This document shows, one piece after another, positions 221 to 12,824 of a DNA stretch of 18,300 bases (positions within the stretch are counted from its first letter, which is position 1; the number at the start of each line of letters is the position of its first letter). Both the position numbers and the translations under genes were made by a program. The notes below the pieces were generated by a model, which worked only from the letters and a program-made list of their open reading frames with translations, was not told where the DNA came from and ran no database searches. The stretch is from a virus (Duplodnaviria > Heunggongvirae > Uroviricota > Caudoviricetes), in IMG/VR virus record IMGVR_UViG_2529292920_000008. One strand, written 5' to 3'.

Positions 221-493
221 TCATCTTGCTGTCAGTTGTTTGGATTTCCGGTAGCCTGCCGCGTAAAGAGCTACGTTCGGAAGACAAGTTGAGCCTTCAT
301 ATTTTCTGGTCAACGTTGTCAGTGTTATTACTTCTGCTCTCATTGCTGGTTTGCGCTTGCATTGCAAGACCACTCGAGAGGGGGTTGGTCTGTGTAGCTT
401 GTCGGAGCTAATCGCCTCCTGACTTTGCAGGTTTGCGCGACGAGCTCTACGACGAGAAGCTGAGGTGCCTTTAAATTCTGTTTTTCTGGACAT
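221..493 (-). CDS. N: N-type transcription antitermination protein (P22 gene 24-like C-terminus)
   Basis: 90-aa product starting MSRKTEFKGTSASRRRARRANLQ (arginine-rich motif near the N-terminus) and ending ...VALYAAGYRKSKQLTAR, which matches the C-terminus of P22 N as I recall it. GGGAGG Shine-Dalgarno before ATG 493. Sits leftward of the immunity region with a nut-like site upstream. The ORF-track start at 577 is an upstream extension. Confidence 0.7.
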   Translation of the reverse strand: MSRKTEFKGTSASRRRARRANLQSQEAISSDKLHRPTPSRVVLQCKRKPAMRAEVITLTTLTRKYEGSTCLPNVALYAAGYRKSKQLTAR

Positions 494-591: not shown

Positions 592-638
592 TGGCTTTTC
601 AGCCACGTAGTCGAGAGTTCGACGTTGTTTAAAGAGCC
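592..638 (-). promoter_or_regulatory. nutL candidate: boxA-like GCTCTTTAAACAA, small hairpin, boxB-like hairpin with GAAA loop
   Basis: On the leftward transcript: GGCUCUUUAAACAA (plus 625-638), hairpin GUCGA-ACUC-UCGAC (plus 610-623), then UGGCU-GAAA-AGCCA (plus 592-605). The same three-part layout recurs downstream of cro. Confidence 0.55.
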
Positions 639-659
639 TGCCAGTCTGTTCCGTTTGGC

Positions 660-892
660 TTCCAGCGTCCTGCTGACGGTTAAATAGTACGATATGTACT
701 TTATTGGGTTAATACTATTTGTTCTAAAATAGGGTGATTTTTTATAACACTTTGTATTTAATAGTGTTGTTTTTTAGCGTGGGTGTATCGCCTCGGCGAT
801 GTAAGGAGAGATCAGAATTGCGTGGTTTAGTGAGTTGTATCTATTTATTTTTCAATAAATACATTTGGTTATGTGTCTTTAGGTGGGGGCGT
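660..892. promoter_or_regulatory. oL/pL candidate region (left operators and leftward early promoter)
   Basis: AT-rich intergenic DNA between the terminator after the DinD-like gene and nutL. Contains near-palindromes AGTACGATATGTACT (680-694) and AACACT-N11-AGTGTT (749-771) that share a TAC-N5-GTA core with the cI/cro intergenic region. Exact operators and -10/-35 not resolved. Confidence 0.35.
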
Positions 893-923
893 GAGGCAAA
901 GAAAACCCGGCGCTGAGGCCGGG
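893..923 (-). terminator. intrinsic terminator on the minus strand, 3' of the DinD-like gene
   Basis: 6-bp GC stem CCCGGC/GCCGGG (906-911 with 918-923), 6-nt loop, followed on the minus strand by UUUUCUUUG. Lies 9 nt past the stop codon at 932-934. Confidence 0.6.
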
Positions 924-931
924 GTATGCAT

Positions 932-1774
932 TTATGGTTTTTTTTGGTCGTGCTTTGCTAGGGCTTTATGAGTTTTCTTAATGCTGCTTCTAACTTTCTG
1001 AATTTTTTCTTGGGAAAGTTTTATGTTTTCAGGGGCTGTTCCAGTGTTAGAAATCATTACATTGCGAACAGATCTCCCTACGGTCTCAGCAGCATTCTCT
1101 AGTTGAGACTGTCCCTTCAGGTTCTGGTTTCTGATTCTTGCTTCTGTCTGTGTAATTCTGAATATATTGGCCGCGAGCTCTTCGCTTCCCATGAAGTCAA
1201 GCATCGTTCCATCTTTTTTAGTTAGGCCTTTTCGAGCTTTCAACTGTGAGAGATTCATATTGTACATCCCACGGTAGCCCGCATTTTGAAATAGACCATA
1301 GTCGACTACTCCGTGTTTATGGGCTACATGACTGAGAGTTTTCTCTCTAGATGTAATCTCGCCACGCAAATAAACTCGATTAACTGCGTCATGGTTATGA
1401 TATGTAGTGTGTATTTCTGCTGCGAGCCCAGCAAAATAAGCTTGTGCATTTGCAACTTTTTGATTGCTGATGTCACCATTCATTACAATCAGATAACAAG
1501 CGAAACGAGTTAATTTAAAGTCATTTTTCGCATTTTCTGAAGGCATCTGGATGAAGTTATCGTATACAGGGATATCGAGGCTCACACATACAGATGTAGC
1601 TTTGTTAATGGCTTTCAATATCTGATCCATGCCATTATATCCAAGCATCATCGCTAAATCAGATGCAAACCAATAGGTAACACCGTTTTCTCTAGCGAAA
1701 TCATCAAATGTTAACTGTGATGTGTCATCGAAAACAGTAATTTGCCTACTCATATCACACCCGAACTTACTCAT
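932..1774 (-). CDS. DinD-like (DNA-damage-inducible protein D family) / Bro-N-like protein; accessory gene in the rexAB slot of the immunity region
   Basis: 280-aa ORF. N-terminal ...VTYWFASDLAMMLGYNG... resembles the Bro-N/KilA-N DNA-binding motif. I recall overall resemblance to DinD-family proteins, but this is memory, not alignment. AT-rich compared with neighbours. Same strand as cI, 80 nt downstream of it, with its own terminator. Confidence 0.6.
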   Translation of the reverse strand: MSKFGCDMSRQITVFDDTSQLTFDDFARENGVTYWFASDLAMMLGYNGMDQILKAINKATSVCVSLDIPVYDNFIQMPSENAKNDFKLTRFACYLIVMNGDISNQKVANAQAYFAGLAAEIHTTYHNHDAVNRVYLRGEITSREKTLSHVAHKHGVVDYGLFQNAGYRGMYNMNLSQLKARKGLTKKDGTMLDFMGSEELAANIFRITQTEARIRNQNLKGQSQLENAAETVGRSVRNVMISNTGTAPENIKLSQEKIQKVRSSIKKTHKALAKHDQKKP

Positions 1775-1854
1775 CGATTTTCCCTTATATTAATATAATG
1801 TGGATAGTTTGTCGCCAACTCGCTAAAGTTATTCATTATGAGGTTTGCCATCCA

Positions 1855-2514
1855 TCACCCAAACGTCTCTTCAGGCCACTGACTAGCGATAACTTTCCCC
1901 ACAACGGAACAACTCTCATTGCATGGGATCATTGGGTATTGTGGATTTAGTGGCTGTAGAAACACCTGACCGCTATCCCTGATCAGTTTCTTGAAGGTAA
2001 ATTCATCACCACCAAGTCTGGCTATGCAGAAATCGCCGGGCTCAACAGCTTGCTCTGGGTCAACCAGAATTAACATCCCGTCAGGAAAACTAGGTTTGGA
2101 ACCTGTTGGGGCGGTCATTGAGTTACCTTCAACCTCAAGCCAGAATGCAGAGTCACTGGCTTTTTTGGTTGTGCTTACCAATCTCTCCGCATCGCCTTTG
2201 GTAAAGGTTCTGAGTTCTGGAGAGAACATCCCAGCCTGAACATGAGAAAAAACAGGGTACTCATATTGTTTTTTAACTGGGGCCGATGAGTATTCGCCAA
2301 CAGGTGAAAATGTCCCGTCGTGGTTGAATGATATGTTATCAATACCAAGGTATTTAAACACCACACCAATATCACTAAGAGATGGATGACGAGATCCGCG
2401 CAACCAGTGTCCAATCCCACCCTGCGTCATACCTAGCTCTTCGGCTAACTTCTCTTGAGTTATGCCGAGCTCTTTCATTCTGGATCTAGCCAGTTCATAC
2501 CATTTCATTTTCAT
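1855..2514 (-). CDS. cI: CI prophage repressor, hybrid: lambda-type C-terminal dimerisation/autocleavage domain with a non-lambda HTH N-terminal domain
   Basis: About 135 C-terminal residues ([26 protein letters not shown]...[12 protein letters not shown]) essentially identical to lambda CI as I recall it. N-terminal [37 protein letters not shown] is an XRE-type HTH unlike lambda. Start taken at ATG 2514 (the ORF-track start at 2676 is an upstream extension); diverges from cro. Confidence 0.9.
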
Positions 2515-2624
2515 GTCCTTATTATTACGCTCTGTATTGCAACCATCCATGCACAATGTGTATTTTTGCTTGCATTCAAAAAGTACATATTGTATTTTTT
2601 CTTCATGGTTACTATGGAGGGCAT
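2515..2624. promoter_or_regulatory. oR/pRM/pR candidate region between divergent cI and cro
   Basis: 110-bp AT-rich spacer between divergent repressor genes. Repeated TGTATT motifs and near-palindrome TACATATTGTA (2583-2593). Possible pR: TTGCAT (2570-2575), 17 bp, TATTTT. Operator boundaries not resolved. Confidence 0.5.
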
Positions 2625-2840
2625 ATGAGCAACCTACGAAAATATCGAGAGTCACTGAATATCTCTCAAACAACACTTGCTAAGGCAGTTGGATGCACAC
2701 AGGGAGCTATCGGACATTGGGAATCTGGTCGTCGCTTCCCAGACCTTAAAACATGCCGTGCTCTTGTTGCGTGTCTAAACAAGTTAGGCGCAAAAGTAAG
2801 TCTTGATGACGTGTTCCCGCCGGAGCACAAAGCCGCTTAA
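2625..2840 (+). CDS. cro: Cro-like repressor (XRE-family HTH)
   Basis: 71 aa from ATG 2625 with GGAGGG Shine-Dalgarno. HTH segment [21 protein letters not shown]. Divergent from cI across the operator region. Confidence 0.8.
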
Positions 2841-2850
2841 TAAGCGGAGC

Positions 2851-2896
2851 CGCTCTTTGTAACAACGGACATTCGTCCTACGTCGCTGAAAAGCGA
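2851..2896 (+). promoter_or_regulatory. nutR candidate: boxA CGCTCTTTGTAACAA, small hairpin, boxB-like hairpin with GAAA loop
   Basis: CGCTCTTT at 2851-2858, hairpin GGAC-ATTC-GTCC at 2867-2878, hairpin TCGCT-GAAA-AGCGA at 2883-2896. Same layout as the nutL candidate. Confidence 0.55.
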
Positions 2897-2981: not shown

Positions 2982-3278
2982 ATGGAACAAACAAGTTACA
3001 GCAAACTATCACAGCGTGACGTTGATCGCGCAGAAACAGATTTACTCATCAACCTGTCAACGCTTACCCAGCGTGGTCTGGCAAAGATGATTGGCTGTCA
3101 TGAATCGAAGATAAGCAGAACGGACTGGCGGTTTATTGCTTCGGTCTTGTGTGCTTTCGGAATGGCATCAGACATCAGTCCAATTAGCAGGGCTTTTAAG
3201 TATGCGCTTGATGGAATCACAAAGAAAAAACGCCCGGCGGCAACCGAGCGTTCTGAACAAATCCAGATGGAGTTCTGA
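2982..3278 (+). CDS. cII: CII transcriptional activator (lambda-type C-terminus)
   Basis: 98 aa; C-terminal KKRPAATERSEQIQMEF identical to lambda CII as recalled; N-terminal part diverged. Sits between cro and O. Confidence 0.85.
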   Translation: MEQTSYSKLSQRDVDRAETDLLINLSTLTQRGLAKMIGCHESKISRTDWRFIASVLCAFGMASDISPISRAFKYALDGITKKKRPAATERSEQIQMEF

Positions 3279-6766: not shown

Positions 6767-6933
6767 TTGACCAAAATCGAAGTTACGAACAAGAAAGCGT
6801 CGAGCGAGCTTTAACGTGCGCTAACTGCGGTCAGAAGCTGCATGTGCTGGAAGTTCACGTGTGTGAGCACTGTTGCGCAGAACTTATGAGCGATCCGAAT
6901 AGCTCAATGTACGAGGAAGAAGACGATGAATGA
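6763..6933 (+). CDS. ninF: NinF-like protein (Cys-rich)
   Basis: [56 protein letters not shown], near-identical to lambda NinF as recalled. Start assigned to GTG 6763 overlapping the ninE stop; start uncertain. Confidence 0.7.
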
Positions 6934-7648
6934 GTTAATAAATGGCAATGCCATAAAAATGACAAGCATTGAAATCGCTGAGTTGGTTGGTAAGCGTCAT
7001 GACAATGTGAAACGTACCATCGAAACGCTGGCTAAAAATGGTGTTATCCGGCTTCCTCAAATTGAGGATTGTGGAAGAATCAATGGGTTAGGCTTAAATC
7101 AAAGTTTTTGTGTGTATGTATTCGAAGGCGAACAAGGAAAGCGAGACAGTATTGTCGTTGTAGCCCAGTTGTCGCCGGAATTCACGGCTCGCCTTGTTGA
7201 CCGTTGGCGAGAGCTTGAAGAAGCTGCGGTTAATATCCCAAAAACGCTACCAGAAGCGTTGCGCCTTGCTGCTGACCTTGCTGAGCAGAAAATGCAACTG
7301 GAAAACCAGCTAGCAATTGCCGCACCTAAAGTTGAGTTTGCCGATCGCGTTGGCGAGGCCAGCGGAATTTTGATTGGAAACTTTGCAAAGGTTGTTGGAA
7401 TTGGTCCAAACAAACTGTTTGCGTGGATGCGCGATCACAAAATCCTTATTGCTTCAGGTTCCCGGCGCAATGTGCCAATGCAGGAATATATGGATCGCGG
7501 CTATTTCACAGTGAAAGAAACAGCGGTCAACACAAATCACGGAATACAGATATCGTTCACCACAAAAATCACCGGGTGTGGTCAACAGTGGCTGACCAGA
7601 AAGCTGCTCGATAACGGAATGCTGAAAGTAACAGGGGAGGCTGCTTAA
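6926..7648 (+). CDS. phage antirepressor-type protein (Rha-like N-terminal region plus AntB/KilAC-like C-terminal domain)
   Basis: 240 aa. N-terminal MTSIEIAELVGKRHDNVKRTIETL resembles the Rha regulatory motif; C-terminal half resembles Ant-type antirepressor C-domains. Family assignment from memory. Confidence 0.7.
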   Translation: MNELINGNAIKMTSIEIAELVGKRHDNVKRTIETLAKNGVIRLPQIEDCGRINGLGLNQSFCVYVFEGEQGKRDSIVVVAQLSPEFTARLVDRWRELEEAAVNIPKTLPEALRLAADLAEQKMQLENQLAIAAPKVEFADRVGEASGILIGNFAKVVGIGPNKLFAWMRDHKILIASGSRRNVPMQEYMDRGYFTVKETAVNTNHGIQISFTTKITGCGQQWLTRKLLDNGMLKVTGEAA

Positions 7649-8297: not shown

Positions 8298-8428
8298 ACA
8301 AAGCATTCGAACGATATATGCGCCAGCGTTATGGCAATCGCTACGATCTTACCCGCGATGCTTACGGCTTCTACTGTCGTGAGGTTGTGAAACGAATGTT
8401 TGAAGTGTGGTGTCATTGCAAAGGATAG
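8294..8428 (+). CDS. small hypothetical protein (44 aa), translationally coupled to rusA, in the position of DLP12 ylcG
   Basis: ATG 8294 overlaps the rusA stop (ATGA). Product MNKAFERYMRQRYGNRYDLTRDAYGFYCREVVKRMFEVWCHCKG; stop TAG at 8426-8428. Below the ORF-track length cutoff. Confidence 0.45.
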   Translation: MNKAFERYMRQRYGNRYDLTRDAYGFYCREVVKRMFEVWCHCKG

Positions 8429-8439
8429 AGGGGAAGACG

Positions 8440-9063
8440 ATGAGACTCGAAAGCGTAGCTAAATTTCATTCGCCAAAAAGCCCGATGATGAGCGACTCAC
8501 CACGGGCCACGGCTTCTGACTCTCTTTCCGGTACTGATGTGATGGCTGCTATGGGGATGGCGCAATCACAAGCCGGATTCGGAATGGCTGCATTCTGCGG
8601 TAAGCACGAACTCAGCCAGAACGACAAACAAAAGGCTATCAACTATCTGATGCAATTTGCACACAAGGTATCGGGGAAATACCGTGGCGTGGCAAAGCTT
8701 GAAGGAAATACTAAGGCAAAGGTACTGCAAGTGCTCGCAACATTCGCTTATGCGGATTATTGCCGTAGTGCCGCGACGCCGGGCGCAAGATGCAGAGATT
8801 GCCACGGTACAGGCCGTGCGGTTGATATAGCCAAAACAGAGCAGTGGGGGATAGTTGCTGAGAAAGAGTGCGGAAGATGTAAAGGCGTCGGTTATTCAAG
8901 AATGCCAGCAAGCGCCGCATATCGCGCTGTGACGATGCTAATCCCAAACCTTACCCAACCCACCTGGTCACGCACTGTTAAGCCGCTGTATGACGCTCTG
9001 GTTGTGCAATGCCACAAGGAAGAGTCAATCGCAGACAACATTTTGAATGCGATCACACGTTAG
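8440..9063 (+). CDS. Q: late gene antiterminator Q (lambda type)
   Basis: 207 aa from MRLESVAKFHSPKSPMMSDSPRATASD..., near-identical to lambda Q as recalled. The ORF-track start at 8407 is an upstream extension. Confidence 0.95.
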   Translation: MRLESVAKFHSPKSPMMSDSPRATASDSLSGTDVMAAMGMAQSQAGFGMAAFCGKHELSQNDKQKAINYLMQFAHKVSGKYRGVAKLEGNTKAKVLQVLATFAYADYCRSAATPGARCRDCHGTGRAVDIAKTEQWGIVAEKECGRCKGVGYSRMPASAAYRAVTMLIPNLTQPTWSRTVKPLYDALVVQCHKEESIADNILNAITR

Positions 9064-10059: not shown

Positions 10060-10489
10060 TTGGCTGCATAAATAATATTTTAAGTTGCAAGTTGGCTATT
10101 CGTAGGAATAGAACCTTAGGCATGCTGAATGCGTTTTCTGAACATTGTTTTATAAACTGTGTCTGCTTGCTGTTGTGATCCTGCTTTTAGTGATGGTGAT
10201 GATGGATTTCACCAGCAGGATAATGTTGGTACTGACTGATGGCGCTCTGGTCTGCGGCATTGTGGTATTGCTGTGGCCGATGATGAAAGAACAGAATGAA
10301 TAATCCTTGACTTTTTTGTTTACTGTTTATTAAAAAATCAACCGCATGGTGAATCCTCCTTGGAGGGGCTAAATGATCGAGTTTTAAGGGCACGTAGCGA
10401 GTTCTGTTTGATCATTGCAGAACTTAGCGGGAGGCGCCATGCGTACATCACTAATGTTATTTCCTTCTATCATTTTCCTTGTGAGTTCT

Positions 10490-10516
10490 GGCTGCGCATG
10501 GCGCGGCCTTTTTTTT
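10490..10516 (+). terminator. intrinsic terminator, plus strand (tR'-like candidate)
   Basis: 8-bp stem GGCTGCGC/GCGCGGCC (one G-U pair), 3-nt loop, followed by eight T residues. Confidence 0.6.
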
Positions 10517-10692
10517 ATGACCTGCCACTGGCAGATGGTCATCCTGTGATTTGATTCCGGTTCCGGCTTTTTAACTCTGTTCCTGTACACGGGAGAAATT
10601 CTATGTCGATTAATCGTTATGATATTGGTTACAAGAAGTACCACGTATTGTGTTGAGATAGAAAGCATGGTGCCAGAGGTAAATGCAGCAGC

Positions 10693-10745
10693 ATAATAAA
10701 AAAGAGCCAGCGCAGAAGAGAACGGGTAAAAGAGTCTGCGCTGGC
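10693..10745 (-). terminator. intrinsic terminator, minus strand
   Basis: Perfect 11-bp inverted repeat GCCAGCGCAGA / TCTGCGCTGGC (10706-10716 with 10735-10745), 18-nt loop, followed on the minus strand by CUCUUUUUUAUUAU. Confidence 0.45.
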
Positions 10746-10861
10746 GTGGGGATATTCCCCGTGGAGAAATGATATGTAACACACATCGGGAACCTTTCTA
10801 TATAAACATTATCATTATTGTCAATCATAACAGTCAGGTATTATGACGTTTATGCATCAGG

Positions 10862-12156: not shown

Positions 12157-12299
12157 ATGTCCGCAGTAAACGCGCATCTCACGCGCATATTAACGAGAGC
12201 CTTTCAGTAAGCGAGCCTGAGAAATGCCGTTATAGGTGGCGACCTCTCTCGGGCGGCTTTTCTGTGAGACAGGCTCACTTTCTAAAAGGTAAAGACGCT

Positions 12300-12824
12300 A
12301 TGAATAATCATTCAGTTATTCCAGCCTTCGACTTCCGAGAAATGGTGCAAGCCAAAAACGGAGAGGTCGTTACCACATCCAGAAAAATTGCCAAGTACTT
12401 CGGCAAGCGACACGGTGATGTTCTCAGGAAAATCGAGCAGGTTAAGGCTGATTGCTCGCGTGAGTTTAGCCAACGCAATTTTGCGTCGGCTGATTATATC
12501 GATGAGCAGGGCAAGGTTCGCCCGATGTACAGCCTGACGAAAGATGGCTGGATCATGGTTGTGATGGGGTTCACCGGGAAAGCTGCTGCGGCAATCAAGG
12601 AGAGCTATATCGCAGCATTCAACTGGATGGCAGAGCAACTGAGCCGCCGCATGGCAATTGGCGAAGAAATGCAGCACCGCTACGCCATCAAAGAAACACG
12701 CTCAAAGCTGAAAGGTACGATCGGCAGTCGGTTAATGAACGAACGGAAGAAAGAGAAGCGTGTCCTGGCTGTCGAGCATGAATACATTTTGCAGGTGACA
12801 CAGCCTGAACTGCTGATTAATTGA
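12300..12824 (+). CDS. Rha-family phage regulatory protein
   Basis: N-terminal VVTTSRKIAKYFGKRHGDVLRKIEQV matches the Rha N-terminal motif. Start taken at ATG 12300 (the ORF track gives GTG 12264). Sits between the lysis cassette and cos. Confidence 0.7.
   Translation: MNNHSVIPAFDFREMVQAKNGEVVTTSRKIAKYFGKRHGDVLRKIEQVKADCSREFSQRNFASADYIDEQGKVRPMYSLTKDGWIMVVMGFTGKAAAAIKESYIAAFNWMAEQLSRRMAIGEEMQHRYAIKETRSKLKGTIGSRLMNERKKEKRVLAVEHEYILQVTQPELLIN

Follow-up and report, generated by a model that had tools for sequence, protein, structure and literature searches.

We analyzed an 18,300-nucleotide (nt) stretch of the Caudoviricetes virus record IMGVR_UViG_2529292920_000008 from IMG/VR (hereafter, the window), and in particular the two putative nut sites that flank its immunity genes. 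Based on the open reading frames (ORFs) and their matches to Pfam, the window contains the immunity and early region of a lambdoid prophage (Table 1). The N gene begins with the ATG at 493, which has GGGAGG ahead of it, and is shorter than the listed ORF. A preliminary description, made from the sequence alone, identified nutL (592-638, minus strand) and nutR (2851-2896, plus strand). The positions of the two sites agree with this assignment: operators lie upstream, nutL is just before N, and nutR is just after cro. More precisely, 98 nt separate nutL from the N start codon downstream, and an operator-like sequence lies about 50 nt ahead of nutL; nutR begins 11 nt past the cro stop codon and is 86 nt before cII. 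Each early operon has one of the sites on its transcribed strand: nutL follows pL and precedes N, and nutR follows cro and precedes cII/tR1. The operator-like 13-mers form a family (AGTACATATYGTA) with one copy at 688-700 on the minus strand and one at 2582-2594 on the plus strand. A scan for consensus promoters flagged neither pL nor pR; we placed these promoters by the operator-like repeats.

Table 1. Features of the window, and loci of satellites resembling phage-inducible chromosomal islands (PICIs) that carry tandem nut modules (these loci are outside the window).
Feature	Position	Strand	Remarks
N antiterminator gene	221-493	-	90 amino acids; translation; Pfam PF25694 N_peptide 1e-31, residues 1-90
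nutL boxB UGGCU-GAAA-AGCCA	592-605	-	5-bp stem, GNRA tetraloop; -6.3 kcal/mol alone
UACG linker, nutL	606-609	-	between spacer hairpin and boxB
nutL spacer ('reducer'-type) hairpin GUCGA-ACUC-UCGAC	610-623	-	pair probabilities 0.87-1.0
nutL boxA GCUCUUUAAACAA	625-637	-	rrn-like: CUUUA of rrn consensus, then ACAA
Operator-like AGTACATATCGTA	688-700	-	upstream of nutL, OL/pL region
Bro-N domain gene	932-1774	-	280 amino acids; Pfam 6e-08
cI	1855-2517	-	
Operator-like AGTACATATTGTA	2582-2594	+	between cI and cro, upstream of cro; OR/pR region
cro	2625-2840	+	
nutR boxA CGCUCUUUGUAACAA	2851-2865	+	
nutR spacer hairpin GGAC-AUUC-GUCC	2867-2878	+	pair probabilities 0.99
UACG linker, nutR	2879-2882	+	
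nutR boxB UCGCU-GAAA-AGCGA	2883-2896	+	-5.7 kcal/mol alone
cII	2982-3278	+	O and P genes also on +
Q	8407-9063		further right in the window
Satellite locus L247	8972-9622		E. coli CP131_Sichuan, NZ_CP053720
Satellite locus L328	2501-2927		strain 83972
Satellite locus L329	2399-3040		
Satellite locus L112	1500-1840		
Satellite locus L151	1150-1420		

Read along the minus strand from 638 to 592, nutL is G GCUCUUUAAACAA C GUCGA-ACUC-UCGAC UACG UGGCU-GAAA-AGCCA, and nutR, on the plus strand, is CGCUCUUUGUAACAA C GGAC-AUUC-GUCC UACG UCGCU-GAAA-AGCGA. As can be seen directly from these sequences, both sites have the three-part layout that the preliminary description had given them (boxA, a small hairpin, and a boxB with a GAAA loop). 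The description was also right that nutL and nutR share the boxB loop and the closing U-A pair but differ in the boxB stem: one compensated pair, G-C in one site and C-G in the other, separates the stems. It did not include the UACG linker, which is identical in nutL and nutR. In each site, a boxA that matches the consensus CGCUCUU(U)A, as quoted in PMC2724277, sits 5' of boxB (GGCUCUUUA in nutL and CGCUCUUUG in nutR). The composite pattern GCTCTTT N{2,9} AAC N{10,18} TACGTNGCTGAAAAGCNA has just two matches in the window, at 592-637 (minus strand) and 2852-2896 (plus strand), and it had no matches in 200 dinucleotide-preserving shuffles of the window.

RNA folding, which had been suggested as a check, fully supports the small hairpins: they formed in all fold predictions for both sites, with pair probabilities of 0.87-1.0. 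The boxB of nutR is part of the minimum-energy fold, which consists of two hairpins (-11.7 kcal/mol), but the boxB of nutL is only a close competitor to another fold, as discussed below.

The hairpin between boxA and boxB had been described as absent from the nut sites of lambda, and this is correct. The lambda nutR is CGCUCUUA-CACAUUCCA-GCCCUGAAAAAGGGC and the lambda nutL is CGCUCUUA-AAAAUUAA-GCCCUGAAGAAGGGC, with no spacer hairpin. However, the layout is not particular to this phage. Phages H-19B, 933W, and HK97 have the same order of boxA, spacer stem-loop, UACG, and a 5-bp boxB, and the GGAC-AUUC-GUCC hairpin, the UACG linker, and the boxB stem of our nutR are base-for-base identical in the nutR of all three. 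Because these three nutR sites hold the same hairpin, we identify the extra hairpin as the spacer stem-loop of H-19B-type nut sites. More broadly, in the comparison with lambda, P22, and Shiga toxin (Stx) phages that had been proposed, the spacer hairpin is conserved in H-19B, 933W, and HK97 and is missing from lambda and from the nutL of P22.

The sequence of the H-19B nutR was rebuilt from the antisense oligonucleotides RS662-665 in the supplement of PMC3526286, and the spacer of our nutR is the reverse complement of RS663 from that supplement. The H-19B nutR has two hairpins, and N together with NusA/NusG protects the spacer and boxB (PMC3526286). For 933W, the record NC_000924 annotates both sites: nutR is CGCUAUUUUCACAAU-GGACAUUCGUCC-UACG-UCGCU GACAA AGCGA, and nutL contains AUAUACAAC-GAUUCGAAUAUGAAUC-UACG-GCGCU GACAA AGCGC.

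If the spacer hairpin (12-14 nt) is removed, then the distance from boxA to boxB is 19-20 nt, as compared to 20 nt in the nutL of P22 and 16-17 nt in lambda. Since the remaining distance resembles those in the hairpin-free sites of P22 and lambda, this supports the view of the hairpin as a spacer that shortens the distance. Neely and Friedman are said to have named the hairpin the "reducer" in 2000. They reportedly found that its pairing matters and its sequence does not, as compensatory changes in the stem restored function; deleting the dyad reportedly had little effect.

The sites in the window differ from those of H-19B, 933W, and HK97 primarily in the boxB loop, which is GACAA (5 nt) in those phages and GAAA (4 nt) here. 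From GGACATTCGTCCTACGTCGCTGA to AAAGCGA, our nutR is identical to those of H-19B and 933W except for the C of the loop (GGACATTCGTCCTACGTCGCTGA.AAAGCGA), and the nutR of HK97, which has a consensus boxA and the same flank downstream of boxB, also differs in the loop by this single C. Both boxA elements in the window are near the rrn consensus, unlike the GCUAUUUU in the nutR of H-19B and 933W or the nutL of 933W, which has no recognizable GCUCUUU. Also, the GUCGA spacer stem of our nutL is unrelated to the GAUUC stem of the 933W type. Overall, neither nut site has the GACAA loop, and N lacks an ARM of the H-19B/933W type, so the architecture is shared and the H-19B specificity probably is not. 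H-19B is reported to be independent of boxA, NusB, and S10. Because both of our boxA elements are near-consensus, unlike GCUAUUUU of H-19B, the sites in the window may differ from H-19B in their dependence on Nus factors; here we are reasoning from the boxA sequences.

Just upstream of the boxA of nutR there is another hairpin. A 6-bp palindrome (CCGCUU-AAU-AAGCGG, 2833-2847) overlaps the stop codon of cro and abuts the 5' side of boxA, and it is found in most of the relatives of nutR that have the same boxA. The 933W-type nutL, which lacks a GCUCUUU boxA, has a small hairpin (CACC-AGGGC-GGUG) in the place of this palindrome.

The lambda sites are similar to ours in their CGCUCUU(U)A-type boxA, in the 5-bp boxB stem that is closed by U-A, and in the G...A purine-rich loop. 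They differ in having an unstructured spacer of 8-9 nt, a pentaloop (GAAAA or GAAGA), and a GCCCU boxB stem instead of NNGCU. The nutL of P22 shares the inner boxB stem (GCU/AGC) and has the boxA CGCUCUUUAAC, but its spacer is 9-10 nt with neither a hairpin nor UACG, and its loop is GACAA. The E. coli rrn antitermination leader (boxB-boxA-boxC) includes the boxA UGCUCUUUA and the spacer ACAAUUUA (PMC2724277). Its boxA core, GCUCUUUA followed by ACAA, is shared with our sites, which match the rrn UGCUCUUUAACAAUUUA (PMC2724277). Relative to this boxA-ACAA stretch, our nutL has one extra A and our nutR has an inserted GU. In the rrn leader, however, the hairpin is ahead of boxA, and there is no N protein.

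To examine the sites across phages, we used two pattern scans of IMG/VR, which gave about 240 loci. A complementary boxB stem was present in 248 pattern hits; in 229 of these, a hairpin of at least 4 bp ends exactly at UACG, and the other 19 look like unrelated matches. Hairpins with GACAGU or UGGU stems from the pattern scan were set aside as chance matches. Among 53 distinct nut sites, the spacer stem takes at least six unrelated forms (GUCGA, GGAC, GGCC, GGUGA, GAUUC(R), and GAAGA), the loops of the spacer hairpins are 3-7 nt, and there are six variants of the outer boxB stem. In a structure-aware alignment of the 53 sites, all cells pair, 7 of the 11 pairs (5 of the 6 in the hairpin among them) show changes on both sides, and the outer pairs of the boxB stem covary among relatives. 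The covariation score is 0.587; shuffles give 0.129 +/- 0.015, and sliding the partners gives 0.089 or less. In contrast, the first pair of the spacer hairpin is always G-C, and the flanking AAC and UACG are nearly invariant. Because G-U pairs occur in the hairpin, we consider it to be an element of the RNA from this strand. The conservation of UACG was only partly tested by this survey, as the pattern that supplied most of the sites requires TACG. A relaxed scan of the fetched loci turned up one CACG linker (in L042), which is the sole departure from UACG that we saw.

We also assembled a sample that was not biased by RNA features: 80 loci were selected by the C-terminal peptide of N (with an alignment of three proteins as the query), and their N proteins are 97-100% identical. 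GAAA is present at 79 of 79 nutL sites and at 74 of about 77 nutR sites. Across these 79 loci, the spacer stem of nutL is constant and its loop is CUC, ACUC, ACAC, GCAC, or AUC. The segment from N to nutL is present, at 80% coverage or above, in 759 of 5,426 complete genomes of E. coli (14%), and it is 100% identical in enteropathogenic E. coli (EPEC) E2348/69.

The N protein of the window has the arginine-rich motif (ARM) SASRRRARRANLQSQ at residues 12-25 and ends with CLPNVALYAAGYRKSKQLTAR, which resembles the C-termini of P22 and 933W. A P22-like C-terminus had been noted previously, and it is borne out by tblastn against P22, which matches residues 67-90 only (79% identity over the last 24 residues, to the gene 24 protein); the ARM of P22 is different (TRRHERRRKLA). 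Across its full length, N is 41% identical to the N of 933W and HK97 and has the same C-terminus. However, H-19B/933W-type N proteins are longer (127 instead of 90 amino acids), and their ARM is RRRERLKAKALANGV instead of RRRARRANLQ, with the ARM in the window being 7 residues shorter. N is 98.9% identical in the Stx phages 1717, YYZ-2008, and 2851, the Stx1 converting phage, and the PA series. A search of N against PDB (E ≤ 10) had no matches.

The preliminary description also stated that N has its own ARM. This holds in comparison to 933W and HK97, whose ARM differs even though the rest of N is homologous. However, the core of the ARM (SRRRARRANLQSQ) aligns with TRRRERRAEKQAQ of lambda N, with 8 of 13 positions identical. 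Lambda N has Trp18 where our N has Glu, and outside the ARM the two proteins have no meaningful similarity (34% identity in a MAFFT alignment).

The type of ARM is perfectly associated with the type of boxB loop. All 22 distinct N proteins that are encoded beside a GAAA nutL have G[ST][AS]A.RRR[AE][RQ]R..[LV]Q, and all 27 that are beside a GACAA nutL have RRRERLKA.A.A.GV. Across the surveyed loci, the nutL and nutR of a phage are always of the same loop class. In its central part, N is a mosaic across the loop classes, and the GAAA class includes forms of 88-120 amino acids. The relaxed scan also identified two natural sites with GCAA instead of GAAA: the nutL of phiSTEC1589-Stx1c (L003, 4384-4410) and a site in L042 (minus strand, around 1832). 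Phage phiSTEC1589-Stx1c has GCAA in nutL and GAAA in nutR, and its N is 84% identical to ours. The replacement of GAAA by GCAA is expected if it is the GNRA fold that is recognized. The suggestion that N and boxB might have a distinct specificity is thus supported by comparison, in that the loop type and the ARM class co-segregate without exception.

Taken together, these observations make it very probable that the two sites are the functional nutL and nutR of a lambdoid prophage with the architecture of H-19B, 933W, and HK97, and that their GAAA boxB and RRRxRRxxLQ ARM form a pair that is separate from the GACAA/RRRERLKAxA pair. The layout had been described before; what is new is the GAAA/ARM allele, which adds a member to the known types of N and nut. 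The GAAA boxB and its ARM are probably a matched pair that combines a lambda-like geometry with an H-19B-like scaffold and has its own specificity. We did not find a description of a GAAA-tetraloop boxB from lambdoid or Stx phages in the open-access literature, which is weak evidence of absence.

From the sequences, positions, predicted folds, covariation, and co-segregation that are described above, we infer binding, the roles of the Nus factors, and a lack of cross-reaction between the classes, as follows. On the transcript from pL or pR, boxA (GCUCUUU...ACAA) would be bound by NusB-NusE. The spacer hairpin would fold regardless of its sequence and would remove 12-14 nt from the linear path between boxA and boxB. 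The 5-bp boxB would present a true GNRA tetraloop (GAAA) to the arginine-rich helix at the N-terminus of N, and the complex with NusA and NusG would make RNA polymerase resist downstream terminators. A GAAA loop without an extruded nucleotide would be matched to an N motif that has no equivalent of Trp18.

A few points weigh against this interpretation. First, the aligned sites were selected for pairing, so the 100% pairing is partly by construction, and the pattern that retrieved most of the sites fixed both UACG and the inner GCU/AGC pairs. Second, the association of N with the loop spans related sequences, so there are fewer than 49 independent events. Third, for the isolated nutL RNA, the optimum is not the two-hairpin fold: a structure in which the 3' half of boxB pairs with boxA is favored by 2.3 kcal/mol (-15.1 vs. 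-12.8 kcal/mol).

The most serious alternative, which we nevertheless consider to be unlikely, is that the loop difference is neutral, so that the GAAA boxB and its N cross-react with the lambda specificity or with the 933W/P22 specificity. The ARM core is 8/13 identical to that of lambda N, as mentioned above, and the nutR loop is just one C away from that of HK97. Furthermore, Legault et al. (1998) reportedly showed that lambda boxB takes a GNRA-like fold and that a boxB with a GAAA tetraloop still binds the lambda N peptide. Against this, the ARM and the loop co-segregate perfectly despite the mosaic central regions of N, and nutL and nutR of a phage are always of one loop class. Also, as described below, GAAA, GACAA, and GAAAA occur as separate modules in satellites, one of which has GAAA where a homologous module of another satellite has GACAA.

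A further possibility, which we put forward tentatively on the basis of sequence comparison, is that the GAAA boxB and the lambda-like ARM without Trp are another recognition class, which would not cross-react with those of lambda, P22/H-19B, or phage 21. In lambda, the recruitment of NusA to the complex depends on the extruded fourth base of the loop. If there is such a class, then it would be the only one without a flipped-out loop nucleotide, and it would have to couple N-boxB to NusA in another way. The invariant UACG linker and the adjacent spacer hairpin are the candidates for this.

It is also conceivable, but rather improbable, that the small hairpin is an independent signal: a contact for Rho (rut) or NusA, a target for an RNase, or a palindrome in the DNA that is bound by a protein. 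The spacer region of the H-19B nutR is protected by both Rho and NusA (PMC3526286), and the hairpin of our nutR (GGACAUUCGUCC) contains ACAUUC, a hexamer that is also in the spacer of the lambda nutR (CACAUUCCA), where AUU is needed for NusA to bind (PMC2724277). The constant first G-C pair and the nearly invariant AAC and UACG flanks would fit with a signal as well. On the other hand, the stems are unrelated between lineages, and even between the nutL and nutR of this phage, and the loops vary (3-7 nt); this argues against sequence-specific recognition of the hairpin. The G-U pairs exclude a symmetric site in the DNA. A lambda-like spacer may be the origin of the nutR hairpin, whose loop may display AUU.

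The last alternative, and the least probable, is that the elements form an RNA switch. BoxA (GCU.CUUU) would pair with AAAA.AGC, from the loop and the 3' arm of boxB, enclosing the spacer hairpin, and both protein-binding sites would be hidden until NusB-NusE or N captures them, which would tune antitermination at nutL. In the alternative fold of nutL, GGCU.CUUU of boxA pairs with the boxB loop and 3' arm, and the spacer hairpin is enclosed. Besides being the optimum for the isolated RNA, this fold has z = -4.1 relative to shuffles and pair probabilities above 0.83, and in nutR it falls short of the optimum by no more than 0.2 kcal/mol. Immediately before GCUCUUU, nutL has G and nutR has C, which matches the sole position of the boxB stem that differs between the sites, and the base before boxA pairs with position 4 of the 3' arm in 20 of 29 distinct sites (14.6 +/- 2.0 in shuffles). 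However, this excess comes from one lineage (consensus CGCUCUU with a UCGCU boxB), and the base before boxA can be G, C, A, or U in sites with a UGGCU boxB, which makes the covariation inconsistent. Among the 29 distinct natural sites with boxA, the switch fold is optimal in only four, all from this nutL lineage; the other 25 favor two hairpins. The order of transcription also exposes boxA first, while it is open to NusB-NusE, and a local tetraloop hairpin is expected to fold more quickly than distant segments can pair. The core complementarity of boxA and boxB can be explained by the composition of two conserved motifs, so we treat the alternative fold as a by-product and not as a conserved switch; it is possible that it is a feature of this lineage.

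While surveying nut sites, we noticed that some PICI-like satellites contain two to four tandem nut modules, on the strand of the genes, in the intergenic region between int and alpA (Table 1). The gene order in these satellites is a tRNA, a P4-like integrase, the intergenic region, a 67-amino-acid AlpA-like helix-turn-helix protein, antA/Icd-like genes, and a P4-family primase. In a four-module array, the first module has a GAAA loop (with boxA, hairpin, and UACG), the second has GACAA, the third has GACAA with the hairpin of the 933W nutL, and the fourth is the exact lambda boxB GCCCUGAAAAAGGGC. Each module is then followed by a boxA-like GCUCUUUAAC. The array of strain 83972 has two modules. 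The pattern scan's hairpin with a GAAGGU stem turned out to be a real nut module of these satellites. The first modules of L328 (strain 83972) and of the IMG/VR contig L151 are homologous: they share the boxA CGCUCUUUUAYAAAC, the hairpin GAAGGU-GUAUUGA-GCCUUC, and UACG, but the boxB is CUGCU-GAAA-AGCGG in L328 and UCGCU-GACAA-AGCGG in L151. Since the same scaffold carries GAAA in one satellite and GACAA in the other, the loop class has switched within a single scaffold. A terminator-like hairpin, which shows compensatory changes between islands, separates the array from the alpA-like gene and lies about 90 nt ahead of the latter.

Helper phages (lambda, phi80, and Kapi1) switch on alpA (PMC6092414, PMC11773190). 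Of these two papers on PICIs (from 2018 and 2025), the 2018 paper says that work on the phage-encoded inducer was ongoing, and antitermination and nut sites come up in neither. The arrays suggest the hypothesis that helper N proteins of several specificities might induce these satellites by antitermination. GAAA, GACAA, and GAAAA modules side by side in one array are what would be expected if they are different signals.

Several other features of the window are worth recording. In the place that rexAB takes in lambda, between N and cI, the window has the Bro-N gene, and directly after this gene there is a strong terminator-like hairpin (CCCGGCCUCAGCGCCGGG followed by UUUU, at 906-923 on the minus strand). 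The Bro-N segment is what distinguishes the window from Stx phages that are otherwise 96-97% identical (across about 70% of the query), and so it behaves like an exchangeable moron. Two genes, at 6926-7648 and 12264-12824 (both on the plus strand), encode regulators with a Rha domain: one is fused to a KilAC/ANT antirepressor domain and lies in the nin region, and the other lies after the lysis genes. In an Rfam scan of the whole window (E ≤ 1), no family covered either nut site, and there were only weak matches to small RNAs (sRNAs) near 10.3-10.8 kb. These are downstream of Q, in the region of the late promoter (10314-10519 on the plus strand and 10696-10785 on the minus strand), and are below the gathering scores: STnc100 has 37.7 bits (gathering score 47), and the enterohemorrhagic E. 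coli (EHEC) sRNA Esr41 has 32.3 bits (gathering score 102).

Our analysis places a very common prophage N/nut module, which is found in 14% of complete E. coli genomes and in many Stx1 and Stx2 phages, in the architectural family of H-19B. It also gives a cleanly separable allele pair of N and boxB, set apart from the neighboring type by a single nucleotide in the loop and a short segment within the ARM. This would be a natural system for studying how arginine-rich peptides tell GNRA-type loops apart, and it might provide an additional orthogonal pair for tethering peptides to RNA. In Stx phages, N-dependent readthrough feeds the expression of late genes and of the toxin. When several lambdoid prophages share one cell, it therefore matters which N acts on which nut site. 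The same question of how N is matched to nut applies to the arrays in the satellites, and this side observation may matter more than the finding about the nut sites themselves.

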